NCBI GenBank assembly: GCA_028718745.1
Contig: JAQULF010000003.1
Location: 160-64,159 of the forward strand
Length of the DNA: 64,000 nucleotides
Reading direction: 5' to 3'
DNA from: Patescibacteria group bacterium
Lineage (GTDB): Bacteria; Patescibacteriota; JACPGU01
The notes below the pieces were generated by a model. The model saw only the letters and a list, made by a program, of their open reading frames with translations. It searched no databases and was not told where the DNA came from. Position numbers and translations under genes: made by a program. This document shows positions 6,338-43,235 of this stretch, piece after piece (position 1 is the stretch's first letter; every line of letters begins with the position of its first letter).

Positions 6338-8026
6338 TTACATTTTTTCTCTCGCTTCGATTCCCATCAAAGCAAGGCAATCTTTTAAAACGACCTCGGT
6401 CGCTTTTATTATTTTAAGGCGAATAGCTTCTCTCTCATCGCCGATAATTCGGCAATTATCATAAAATTTATGAAATTCAGTCGCAATCTCATGCGCGAAA
6501 AATGGGATTTTATAAACCTGATAATTCTCACCCACTTCTTTAATTAACTCCGGGTATTGGGAAAGTTTTTTAATTAAATTAATTTCGTATTTAAAATTTT
6601 GATTTTGGAGTGACGGACGATAGTCCGTTATCTTTCCTGTGACAGACTTTCGTCTGTCATTCCGATTAATCTTCGAGAGTACGCTATGTATCCTAGCTGA
6701 CGCATACTGAACATAAAATACCGGGTTCCTCGAGCTCTGCTCTTTTGCCAAATCCAAATCTATATCAATATGATGCCCATAATCTTTTGAAATGAAAAAG
6801 TAGCGGGCTGATTCTAAACTCATCTCCTCCGCTGCTTCGCGAAGAGTGATGAAATTCCCCTTTCTCTTGCTCATCCTGACTTCCTTGCCGCCCTGCATGA
6901 GATGAACCAGTTGAAAAATGATTAAATCCAGTTTGCCTTCATGCTTTAAAATTTTTGCGACAGCTTGCAATCTCCCCACATAACCATGATGATCGGCTCC
7001 GAGAAAAATAATAATTTTACCAAATTTTCGTTGTGAGAACCTTTCATAAAGATAAGCGACATCCGACATTAAATAAGTGAAATTACCATCGGTCGTTTTT
7101 ACTACGCGATCTTTTTCGTCGCCATATTCGGAAGTTTTCAACCAATAAGCTCCTTCGTTTTCATAAACCAGATTCTTGGCTTTAAAAAAATCCCACATTT
7201 TATAAACCAGTTTCTCTTTGAAAAGGATTGATTCGGTAAACCAGCGATCAAACTTGATCCCGAGAAACTTTACATCTTTTTTTATAAATTCATCGAGAAT
7301 TATTTTCGCCGCCATCTCTCCTGTTCTCTCATAGTTTCGCCTGATCCATTCAATTCCTTTTTGCTTTTTTATTTTTCGCGCCACTACATCAATATATTCT
7401 CCGCCATAAATGTCTTCGCCTTCCACTGTTTCGATTTCTAAATCCAAATTTTTATAAACTGACTTAGCTAAAATTTTAACCTGATTTCCGGCATCATTCA
7501 CATAATACTCGCGTTTAATATTATAGCCGTTTTTTGCCAAAACATTCGAAAGCGTATCACCGGAAAATCCTCCCCTGCCGTTTCCAAGAGTTAATGGTCC
7601 GGTGGGATTGGCGGAAATGAATTCAACTTGAATTTTCTTCTCCTTGCCGGAATTATTTGAACCATACTTGCTTTTTTCTTTTAAAATGTTGCTTAATTCT
7701 TTCAAATAAACTGATGAATTTAAAAAGAAATTGACATATCCGTCGCAAGCCTCAACTTTTGCGATTTCTTTGGCGGGCGTTAAATTTAACGCCCCTACGA
7801 TTTCGCCGGCGATATCTCTTGGATTTCTTTTTAACTGTTTAGCGAGAATGAACGATATATTCGTCGCAAAATCTCCATACCCCTCCCTCTCCGGCACAGA
7901 AATATCGTATTGATCAATTTCAACTTTGAAAAGTTTTTTGACAACCTTATCGATTTGTTTGCGAAGTAATTCTTTCATGGTATTTTTATAGAGGATCCTT
8001 TCTCCACTTGTCTTTAGCAAATTCAT
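6338..8026 (-). CDS. argS: Arginine--tRNA ligase
   Basis: Class I HIGH-like region SANPTGPLTLGNGRG, Arg-tRNA synthetase core FLGADHHGYVGRL, MSKRKGN (KMSK-like), C-terminal DALR-type anticodon-binding region; contains a 23-aa in-frame insertion encoded by a REPIN-like repeat (see findings). Confidence 0.9.
   Translation of the reverse strand: MNLLKTSGERILYKNTMKELLRKQIDKVVKKLFKVEIDQYDISVPEREGYGDFATNISFILAKQLKRNPRDIAGEIVGALNLTPAKEIAKVEACDGYVNFFLNSSVYLKELSNILKEKSKYGSNNSGKEKKIQVEFISANPTGPLTLGNGRGGFSGDTLSNVLAKNGYNIKREYYVNDAGNQVKILAKSVYKNLDLEIETVEGEDIYGGEYIDVVARKIKKQKGIEWIRRNYERTGEMAAKIILDEFIKKDVKFLGIKFDRWFTESILFKEKLVYKMWDFFKAKNLVYENEGAYWLKTSEYGDEKDRVVKTTDGNFTYLMSDVAYLYERFSQRKFGKIIIFLGADHHGYVGRLQAVAKILKHEGKLDLIIFQLVHLMQGGKEVRMSKRKGNFITLREAAEEMSLESARYFFISKDYGHHIDIDLDLAKEQSSRNPVFYVQYASARIHSVLSKINRNDRRKSVTGKITDYRPSLQNQNFKYEINLIKKLSQYPELIKEVGENYQVYKIPFFAHEIATEFHKFYDNCRIIGDEREAIRLKIIKATEVVLKDCLALMGIEAREKM
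6604..6665. repeat. REPIN-like paired-hairpin palindromic element, copy 1 (inside argS coding sequence, in-frame)
   Basis: tttggagtGACGGACgataGTCCGTta ... tGACAGACtttcGTCTGTCattcc: two hairpins in inverted orientation, same family as copies at 27936, 36685, 37084 and 43165. Confidence 0.7.
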
Positions 8027-27609: not shown

Positions 27610-27935
27610 ACCCCCTCCCATTTTTTTTCTTCTTCTTTTCTTTTTTTCTCGATTCGGCGGATCCTATTTCCCCTTCTGCGCGCCGCTCTTATTTCTTCAT
27701 TTGTCAGAAGACGCCCCTTCCTTTTCACTTCTTCTTCCGGATACAGGCTTTTCGGTAAAAAAGATGCTCTTTCCACCGGAACCATTCTTCTCCATGAGCG
27801 CTGGTATCTGTTTATTTCTGCCGCTCTCATTTCCCCTGCTTTTGCAAGTGCAGAATTTCTCTTCAAATCACTCACCTCCTTTGTTAAATGACATTTTTTC
27901 TTATTCTATCAAAAAAATATATTTATATCAAATCT

Positions 27936-27997
27936 TTGGAATGACGAACGATAGTTCGTTAATTTGAAAATGACAGACTATCGTCTGTCACTCCAAA
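27936..27997. repeat. REPIN-like paired-hairpin palindromic element, copy 2 (intergenic, downstream of recJ)
   Basis: tttggaatGACGAACgataGTTCGTtaa ... aaTGACAGACtatcGTCTGTCActccaaa. Confidence 0.7.
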
Positions 27998-36684: not shown

Positions 36685-36756
36685 TGACAAACTATCGTTT
36701 GTCACTCCAAAATTCATGATTATCGCATTTGGAATGACGGACGACAGTCCGTTATC
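36685..36756. repeat. REPIN-like paired-hairpin palindromic element, copy 3 (intergenic, immediately downstream of RAYT gene)
   Basis: tGACAAACtatcGTTTGTCActccaaa - 16-nt spacer - tttggaatGACGGACgacaGTCCGTtatc. Confidence 0.7.
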
Positions 36757-36767
36757 TTTTCTTAATT

Positions 36768-37394
36768 TTAATCTTCTATATTTATATCATTCGCGGGATA
36801 ATAATAAAAGCAATCAAACAAAAAATCTTTTCCTCTTTTTGTTAGCCAATGCTTGTAACTGCAAAAATTAAAATTTTCCAATTCCTCAAAATTTTTTACC
36901 AAACCGTGCTTTATTGGATTTTGGTGAATATAATTGAATATCTTAAAGAAATCTCGTTCGCCTCTTATGCAATAATCCCAATACTGATAAAATACTTTTC
37001 TTCCCTCACAATCGTCCATCTTATTTAAAACTCTCGCAATCGAAGAATTCAAACGATTTGCGAAATAGGAAATCTTTTTTTGTTTGACAGCCTTACGGCT
37101 GTCATTCCAAGGATTTTCTAAAAAATCTAGCATACCACTGTTTGTATTTGGAGTGACACCCGTGAGGGTGTCGTCCTCAATAGAGTTTAACTTTAGCAAC
37201 AAATGATAATGGTTTTTCATTATCGCAAAAGCATAAAGTGAAATTCCTAATTCTTTAATTAAGTTGTTAATTATGTTTAAAATTATTCCCTCTCTTCCGG
37301 AAAAATAATTTTTCTTTTCAAAACACCTTGTTGTTAAAAAATAAACTTCATTTTCTAATTCTAAATGAAACGGCCTGTGCTTATTTGATTTCAT
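36768..37394 (-). CDS. IS200/IS605-family Y1 (HUH) transposase, REP-associated tyrosine transposase (RAYT)-like
   Basis: HUH motif NHYHLLL; C-terminal catalytic-Tyr motif NYIHQNPIKHGLV (YIxxNPVkaGLV of Y1_Tnp); HUH-to-Tyr spacing inflated by ~33 aa that are encoded by a REPIN-like element (37084-37176). Confidence 0.7.
   Translation of the reverse strand: MKSNKHRPFHLELENEVYFLTTRCFEKKNYFSGREGIILNIINNLIKELGISLYAFAIMKNHYHLLLKLNSIEDDTLTGVTPNTNSGMLDFLENPWNDSRKAVKQKKISYFANRLNSSIARVLNKMDDCEGRKVFYQYWDYCIRGERDFFKIFNYIHQNPIKHGLVKNFEELENFNFCSYKHWLTKRGKDFLFDCFYYYPANDINIED
37084..37176. repeat. REPIN-like paired-hairpin element, copy 4 (variant with compensatory stem changes), in-frame inside the RAYT gene
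   Basis: ttGACAGCCttacGGCTGTCattccaagg ... tttggagtGACACCCgtgaGGGTGTCgtc; conserved flanks TTGACAG...GTCATTCCAA and TTTGGAGTGAC...GTC. Confidence 0.55.
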
Positions 37395-37395
37395 T

Positions 37396-37755
37396 TTATT
37401 TCCTAAAATCTATCCCACCTGCTTTTTTATTGGTATGCCCGACGCGCTTAACATCCTCAACCGGAAATCTTGTTTCGTATTCTTCCAAAACATCATCGAT
37501 AGCCTTCTGGGAATCGACTCCGCAAATGTGGGCTATTTTTAAAGCAAGAAAAGTAATATCACCAATAAAGTTTTCTACTTCACCCATATTTTCTTTTATT
37601 AACTTTTCCTGTTCTTTAGCGTCCACCCATTTAATTATATTCCAAAATTCTCCAATCTCCTCGCTCATATTAAGCAGGAGATCCTTTACTTCGCTGACAT
37701 TCCCCCATCCCCTTTCCTTATTAAATTTTTCGATTTTGTCCTGTGTTTTTTTCAT
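37396..37755 (-). CDS. MazG-like nucleotide pyrophosphohydrolase domain protein
   Basis: EEIGEFW...DAKEQE...GDITFLALKIAH pattern typical of small MazG/NTP-PPase all-alpha proteins. Confidence 0.55.
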   Translation of the reverse strand: MKKTQDKIEKFNKERGWGNVSEVKDLLLNMSEEIGEFWNIIKWVDAKEQEKLIKENMGEVENFIGDITFLALKIAHICGVDSQKAIDDVLEEYETRFPVEDVKRVGHTNKKAGGIDFRK

Positions 37756-43164: not shown

Positions 43165-43235
43165 TAGACAGACTGTCGTCTGTCATTCCAAAATTCAGGA
43201 TTAGCATTTGGAGTGACGGACGATAGTCCGTTATG
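43165..43235. repeat. REPIN-like paired-hairpin palindromic element, copy 5 (ftsL-rsmH spacer)
   Basis: taGACAGACtgtcGTCTGTCattccaaa - 12-nt spacer - tttggagtGACGGACgataGTCCGTtatg. Confidence 0.7.

Follow-up and report, generated by a model that had tools for sequence, protein, structure and literature searches.

REP-RAYT pairs are the best example in bacteria of a long-lived, vertically inherited partnership between a repeat and an enzyme.

The closest described system is subclass 2.4 of the TnpAREP proteins (RAYT group 4), for which in-frame REP insertions between the HuH motif and the catalytic Y were reported (Quentin, Siguier, Chandler, Fichant 2018, BMC Genomics 19:475, PMC6006769). The authors call such insertions unique to this subclass and regard them as a loop at the periphery that hardly affects activity. 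Subclass 2.4 is characterized by the signature NH[IFV]H / WQ / YIxNNP and by GT[AG]G-footed long or double-foot REPs (Table 1, PMC6006769); its hosts are mainly Cyanobacteria and Bacteroidetes, and the text part of the supplement names no candidate-phyla taxa. The length of the loop between beta3 and alphaC varies in several TnpAY1 subclasses, and in subclass 2.3 a conserved protein domain of 55 aa is present at this place (PMC6006769). REPs within other genes are also already known (Di Nocera et al., 2013, PMC3733652). For Patescibacteria, a literature search yielded no paper on REPs or RAYTs.

The RAYT gene of the window and its relation to described systems

The window, i.e. the whole 64-kb stretch of DNA that was analysed, contains a RAYT gene whose 208-aa product is 100% identical to the NCBI MAG protein PHU42_01760 (hypothetical protein, Patescibacteria group bacterium). 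The gene and its motif codons are located as follows.

36768..37394, minus strand: gene for a RAYT / TnpAREP-type Y1 HUH transposase of 208 aa (ORF list, Pfam Y1_Tnp, NCBIfam, Foldseek)
37203..37211, minus strand: HUH codons (H62-Y63-H64) in predicted strand beta3, invariant in 25 homologues (strand 62-68 in the model)
36930..36932, minus strand: codon of the catalytic Tyr155 in the motif NYIHQNP, invariant in the alignment (helix 146-162 in the model)

The protein matched Pfam Y1_Tnp above the cutoff of this family and retains all 14 invariant family positions in the alignment. H62-Y-H64 is combined with Y155-IHQ-N159-P160, and YIHQNP corresponds to the class-2 TnpAY1 form Y---NP by the class definition in PMC6006769. 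The best-scoring NCBIfam family was NF047646 REP_Tyr_transpos with 67.6 bits, which is below the curated cutoff of 80; removal of residues 72-105 raised the score to 76.7 bits, still below the cutoff. The NCBIfam model transpos_IS200 gave 19.5 bits compared to a cutoff of 55, and the protein does not qualify as a member of the IS200/IS605 family. In a Foldseek search with an AlphaFold2 model of the protein, the best match was 4ER8, the E. coli TnpAREP bound to a REP hairpin (E 4.6e-8; TM 0.68, normalised to the target), with the IS608 and ISDra2 transposases (2VJV, 2XO6) ranking next. The presumed activity of the enzyme would be the cleavage and rejoining of cognate single-stranded REP DNA.

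The start codon of the RAYT gene is located 1 nt from the stop codon of an upstream ORF of 119 aa (37396..37755, minus strand). This gap leaves no room for an upstream REP or for an own promoter, and the RAYT gene is therefore probably co-transcribed with its neighbours. Upstream of the RAYT start codon no REP was found in the window, and likewise none in the orthologous locus L001 described below; there are only internal and downstream REPs. In L001, MurD lies downstream of the RAYT gene; in the window it is found two genes downstream, a position that hints at vertical descent of the RAYT.

With subclass 2.4, the window RAYT shares the occurrence of cognate REPs within the RAYT gene, the maintained reading frame, the beta3-alphaC site and the variable length and sequence of the insert, i.e. 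the variable in-frame REP insertion between beta3 and alphaC that is a trait of that subclass. In contrast to subclass 2.4, it has the motifs NHYH / WD (Y138-W139-D140) / YIHQNP, its REPs have short 7-bp stems and a GGART foot, and its host is represented by a Patescibacteria MAG. Judged by the motif signature alone and not by a formal HMM classification, it is placed outside subclass 2.4. A RAYT of Cyclobacterium with the signature of that subclass (L015; NHIH / WQ / YIINNP, spacing 97 aa) has an insert that includes GTAG-GGGCAGGG-TTTAC-CCCTGCCC and an inverted partner; with this canonical GTAG foot, the published phenomenon of subclass 2.4 was reproduced here.

The REP/REPIN-RAYT systems or REPtrons (4ER8; Bertels and Rainey, 2011, PMC3116915; Corneloup et al., 2021, PMC8266576) likewise comprise a Y1 HUH enzyme with Y---NP and flanking inverted REP hairpins that recur in the genome, the REPs occurring as inverted pairs. 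The window locus differs from them in that its foot motif is other than GTAG, NCBIfam scores the protein below the cutoff, one REP pair of the locus is coding and an upstream REP is missing. The TnpA proteins of the IS200/IS605 family (IS608, ISDra2) have the HUH/Y1 fold and a hairpin DNA substrate in common with the window RAYT, but they possess Y---Q and an HUH-to-Tyr distance of about 60 aa, their hairpins form the left and right ends, and they belong to multicopy mobile IS elements. As far as they are described through the citations in PMC3733652, the Rickettsia palindromic elements (RPEs) are similar in that in-frame palindromic repeats are tolerated in loops or linkers, here those of RAYT and of argS; they are different in being longer, in forming a Rickettsia-specific family and in having no known dedicated transposase gene that hosts them. 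The feature shared with RPEs, a dispersed palindrome within an ORF that keeps the frame and is missing in homologues, was found here for RAYT and, in comparison with one orthologue (L006), for argS.

A preceding sequence-only reading of this DNA had regarded a transposase that tolerates, or is inactivated by, its own cargo element as a curious evolutionary state, for which subclass 2.4 (PMC6006769) provides a precedent. The phenomenon itself is published; new are a RAYT lineage and a phylum for which self-carried REPs had not been reported before. Self-carried REPs are not confined to subclass 2.4 as published, but occur also in Patescibacteria RAYTs with another foot motif. Current views are not overturned by the intragenic REPs; the window represents a clean and compact case of a RAYT gene within which the presumed substrate of the enzyme resides.

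REP units of the window and inside the RAYT gene

In the 64-kb window, 10 REP units were identified which form five pairs, two of them within coding sequences. The four pairs outside the RAYT gene, for which no strand is given, are the following.

36686..36753: extragenic pair with tails inward, beginning 15 nt behind the stop codon of RAYT; flanking cognate repeat
43167..43232: intergenic REP pair, tails inward
27935..27997: intergenic REP pair, hairpins inward and tails outward
6604..6666: REP pair in frame in argS (ORF 6338..8026, minus strand), encoding NRNDRRKSVTGKITDYRPSLQNQ in the linker of the DALR domain

The RAYT gene is thus flanked by a REP pair (36686-36753) that recurs elsewhere in the window with three more pairs. 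Two arrangements were observed, with hairpins inward and tails outward (27935-27997, 6604-6666) or with tails inward (36686-36753, 37086-37172, 43167-43232), and each pair joins one GACAGAC-type and one AACGGAC-type unit. The 11-mer GTCAYTCCAAA (at most one mismatch) was found 14 times in the window compared to 3.1 expected occurrences, and the 10 units consisting of hairpin plus tail compare with 0.055 per shuffled window. A covariance model assigned 36-42 bits to the 10 units and at most 13 bits to all the rest of the window; since the 10 units were in the training set of the model, the informative part of this result is that nothing else exceeds 13 bits.

All 10 units have the foot GGAGT or GGAAT (complement of the AYTCC tail) and not the canonical GT[AG]G foot. 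The same foot was observed in the units of L001-L006 and L099-L101, where it likewise stands in place of the canonical GT[AG]G or CGTC tags. The GGART foot seems to be associated with Patescibacteria RAYTs of the NHYH/WD/YIHQNP type, and a literature search revealed no description of a GGAGT/GGAAT foot motif.

The fifth pair is located within the RAYT gene, where the following elements were distinguished.

37080..37181, minus strand: in-frame insertion in the loop between beta3 and alphaC, comprising codons 72-105 (IEDDTLTGVTPNTNSGMLDFLENPWNDSRKAVKQ); missing in about 60 of 75 homologues, pLDDT about 53
37147..37172, minus strand: REP unit, first in coding direction, GACACCC-TCAC-GGGTGTC-ACTCCAAA; encodes DTLTGVTPN (covariance model 36.5 bits, training-set member)
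37112..37146, no strand given: spacer of 35 nt between the two units
37086..37111, plus strand: REP unit, second in coding direction, read as reverse complement, GACAGCC-TTAC-GGCTGTC-ATTCCAAG; encodes WNDSRKAV (covariance model 36.8 bits, training-set member)

In each of the intragenic units, a perfect stem of 7 bp encloses a loop of 4 nt and is followed by the tail AYTCCAAA, with the tails pointing inward. Codons 72-105 are REP DNA of the local family. The in-frame REPIN-like insertion between HUH and Tyr that the sequence-only reading had proposed thus proved to consist of two inverted REP units, and the paired-hairpin architecture with the flanks of the family, also claimed there, was found again at four other sites of the window; the peptide quoted corresponds to residues 72-106. 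When folded as single-stranded DNA, the 101-nt intragenic element had z = -5.7 (plus strand) and -5.5 (minus strand), values that compare with -5.2 and -6.7 for intergenic REP copies.

At the insertion site, about 60 of 75 homologues have no residues, as seen in alignments with first 25 and then all 75 homologues. Most homologues comprise about 180 aa and contain nothing between 'HYHLLxK' and the next helix 'LSxxIxxLN'. The spacing from N61 to Y155 is 94 aa compared to 60-61 aa in about 85 other superfamily loci; metagenome matches, most of them subclass 2.1-like proteins with 60-aa spacing, served as a control for the spacing. The 34 inserted residues agree with the earlier estimate of about 95 versus about 60 aa and an insertion of about 33 aa. 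With the full RAYT, the Pfam Y1_Tnp match stops at residue 70 (28 bits), and after removal of residues 72-105 it covers profile positions 16-120 of 121 (39 bits). These data support that the segment is a true insertion derived from REP DNA.

The AlphaFold2 model (alignment A1) has a mean pLDDT of 82.5 and about 53 for residues 71-105, the latter value in part reflecting the few sequences aligned there. It shows strand 62-68 (HUH, beta3), then the low-confidence residues 71-105 and then helix 107-126 (alphaC), and outside the insertion it resembles E. coli TnpAREP (4ER8). The sequence-only reading would have been refuted if the segment corresponded to the conserved core of Y1 transposases; the model instead places it outside this core, in a predicted loop of low confidence, and the remainder matches 4ER8.

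The two intragenic units differ from the four other pairs of the window in stem, loop and spacer, so that no recent exchange is visible within the window. Their 35-nt spacer is unlike the 14-16-nt spacers of the intergenic pairs and also unlike the spacers of the orthologues. Compared to the other units of the window, the stems are changed at paired positions only, in one pair in the first unit and in two to three pairs in the second. This part of the earlier claim of compensatory-mutated stems holds, whereas an origin of the changes in place is not needed, as the GACACCC stem of 37147-37172 is the REP stem type of L006. De novo compensatory evolution as the sole reading of the odd stems was rejected for this reason. 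The intragenic units may therefore belong to an older or a different REP subtype.

Insertions in orthologues and distant relatives

Insertions at the same site were found in the three orthologues P0002, P0003 and P0004 (59-70% identical; DNA: L001/L002, L003/L004 and L005). They encode 38 (L001), 25 (L003) and 37 aa (L005) compared to 34 aa in the window, and all of them are in frame. The L001 insert contains three REP units, the first of which is decayed, and the L003 insert contains two, the second of which lacks its stem. The L005 insert comprises two canonical units, the second in another reading frame, where its GATA loop does not give the TAG stop codon that it would give in the WND frame. 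The left junction GGTTGCAAA|GAC is common to L001, L003 and L005, and the right junction GTC|AATAAAAAT to L001 and L003. A fourth orthologue, P0006 from a Patescibacteria MAG whose contig measures 867 kb (L006, 51% identical), keeps one unit in frame at this position, GGAATGACATCCCGCAAGGGTGTC, and its stop codon is immediately followed by a REP, GACACCC-TCAC-GGGATGTC-ATTCCAAAA. In a profile search of genome contigs, only L006 and the pseudogene L014 were close, and in a profile search of metagenome contigs the best match was 36% identical, with no further insertion-bearing orthologue.

For the protein core, dN was 0.12-0.16 and dS was at least 1.5 or not computable (saturated), with a core dN/dS of about 0.08. 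The RAYT is under purifying selection with the insertion in place, and its frame has stayed open. At the DNA level, 27 units from seven contigs were aligned (those of L006 with a bulged A removed and labelled): 94.5% of the stem cells pair, five of the seven base pairs are changed on both sides, and the covariation score was reached by none of 500 shuffles. The hairpin is conserved, but the peptide is not (e.g., DGLLSV, DTLTGV, DRLSSV). The spacers inside the inserts (35, 17, 15, and 43 nt) could not be aligned, and the REP units are still recognisable. For these units to persist despite saturated synonymous sites, either the REP DNA must be constrained, or the units must be replaced repeatedly or gene-converted from the genomic pool of REPs, or quasipalindromes must be corrected. 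Signs of turnover are the decayed units in L001 (first) and L003 (second), the extra unit of L001, the frame change in L005 and the partial tandem copies in L099 (see below). The orthologue series thus shows a tract that gains, loses and reshapes units while the frame and the enzyme core remain under selection.

Among the 75 homologues, the more distant proteins P0008, P0018, P0020, P0022, P0027, P0033, P0036, P0039, and P0048 (31-38% identical) contain 18-52 extra loop residues. For six of the corresponding loci, the insert had full or partial counterparts elsewhere on its own contig.

L100 (P0033): AGCAAAC-TTAC-GTTTGCT-ACTCC; flanked by three copies
L101 (P0036): AGCGAAC-TGAC-GTTCGCT-ACTCC; one extragenic copy
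L102 (P0022): GTCCCGAT-GCGA-ATCGGGAC; the gene has copies on either side
L099 (P0048): GACAGAC-TTGC-GTCTGTC-ACTCC together with a GACGAAC unit, the tails pointing outward, and with partial copies in tandem; two copies upstream
L103 (P0039): CCTGCC-TAAA-GGCAGG-AGTCCA; one copy upstream
L098 (P0020): an inverted repeat rather than a short stem-loop; matched in part, by a 12-mer that recurs just before the start codon

The intragenic hairpins match the REPs of their own contig, and the REPs differ between contigs. The insert of L104 (P0018) forms two hairpins, its contig being too short for such a comparison. For the 44-aa insertion of L096 (P0008), a search of 20 kb with k = 11 revealed neither a further copy nor hairpins that match; this insertion is regarded as decayed or unrelated. 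In a rough neighbour-joining tree, the insertion-bearing proteins fall into at least three to four groups, and P0039 stands beside insertion-free relatives. Several independent gains of the insertion are therefore likely, the rough tree being too weak to count them. A comparison of the lineages by eye revealed no conserved target sequence at the insertion point, and the distance from HYH to the first hairpin ranges from 7 to about 25 codons between lineages.

Some further observations were made at these loci. In L099 (1290-1400, P0048), three tandem partial copies of GTCTGTCACTCCGCAAGAA encode SVTPQE repeats, which means that REP half-units were amplified in a coding sequence. In L096 and L098, two distant Patescibacteria contigs, the few kb around the RAYT gene include genes that match Pfam 23S_rRNA_IVP (and, weakly, bAvd). 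L014 (2430-2990; JBAZBH010000022.1, Patescibacteria MAG) harbours a RAYT pseudogene with the N- and C-terminal parts in different frames; its HUH region is replaced by GC-rich palindromes, e.g. GACCCCGCCGCGGCGGGGTTATCGTC, an insertion in this region having destroyed the gene.

Origin and possible role of the intragenic REPs

Very probably, a REPIN-like pair of REP hairpins inserted into its own RAYT gene, in the surface loop that connects the HUH strand (beta3) to alphaC. The pair could have entered the gene via single-strand cleavage and joining by the enzyme itself or through recombination with the REPs that flank the gene nearby. It would have landed in a permissive loop where the extra residues are harmless and, as we infer from the sequence, the interrupted enzyme would still work. 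Insertions elsewhere in the RAYT gene would be purged by selection, which would explain that all surviving cases are found in one loop. The resident REP might still serve as a substrate or recombine with the REPs of the genome, with units being added, replaced, homogenised or lost by decay. Such a turnover would account for the resemblance of the intragenic units to the REPs of their own lineage, and for units that are recognisable throughout the clade despite saturated synonymous sites and diverged spacers. Whereas entry, landing in a harmless loop and continued reshaping are steps of this proposed course, the selection that keeps the frame open is evident from the orthologues. The intragenic and extragenic REPs form a natural pair of substrates for experiments.

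It is scarcely conceivable that the segment is an ordinary lineage-specific protein loop with a fortuitous likeness to REPs. The variable beta3-alphaC length in TnpAY1 subclasses and the 55-aa domain of subclass 2.3 (PMC6006769) would fit such a loop, but the two units scored 36-37 bits (as members of the training set) with at most 13 bits in the rest of the window, shuffled windows gave only 0.055 units each, and it is the DNA hairpins and tail that are conserved and not the peptides. That the insertion inactivated the transposase and left a decaying relic with a coincidentally open frame, a possibility also raised by the sequence-only reading, is very unlikely. The position of a 34-aa insertion eight residues after HUH, the NCBIfam score below the cutoff and the existence of a real pseudogene in the relative L014 would be in line with it. 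However, the ORF is intact and the 14 invariant positions are kept, the four insertion-bearing orthologues retain frame and catalytic residues with inserts of differing length (dN 0.12-0.16, dS at least 1.5), and the model core is confident and TnpAREP-like; the intact frame, the core dN/dS of about 0.08 and the invariant positions together are a strong argument against a pseudogene.

A rival that deserves more weight, though we consider it rather improbable, is that the intragenic pair is kept for a role in cis, as a binding or cleavage site for the RAYT, as an mRNA hairpin for feedback or as a protected 'master' copy that is co-inherited with the RAYT. Hairpins and tail that persist beside saturated synonymous sites and unalignable spacers would be expected from such a role, as would stems changing by paired substitutions while the peptide is not conserved, the recurrence of the arrangement in several RAYT lineages with REPs of their own, and the restriction of REPs to internal and downstream positions in the window and L001. 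On the other hand, units are decayed in L001 (unit 1) and L003 (unit 2), L006 has only one unit and in L096 none can be recognised, the majority of the homologues are free of any insertion, and the pattern would equally result, with no function involved, from gene conversion, renewed insertion or quasipalindrome correction. In a more specific form, which we put forward only tentatively, the REP tract of this Patescibacteria RAYT lineage might be a maintained DNA or RNA element (autoregulatory site or protected seed copy) that is renewed by the enzyme itself. If true, this would account for a tract that tracks the REPs of each genome and outlasts neutral saturation.

The second coding pair of the window is located in argS (6338..8026, minus strand; Pfam Arg_tRNA_synt_N, tRNA-synt_1d, DALR_1), where it occupies a variable linker within the anticodon-binding domain. 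In L006, the argS (62% identical), the sole close orthologue compared, has no hairpins at this place; in an alignment with the argS of L096 and solved structures, the region again appeared as a variable linker, L006 being the informative comparison. This in-frame pair indicates that the REP family is tolerated inside genes generally, and that in small, gene-dense genomes REPs settle even inside essential genes such as argS. In L006 (6001-8180), the RAYT gene is directly followed by argS with one REP in between, and in the window the two genes, both with in-frame REP units, are located 29 kb apart.
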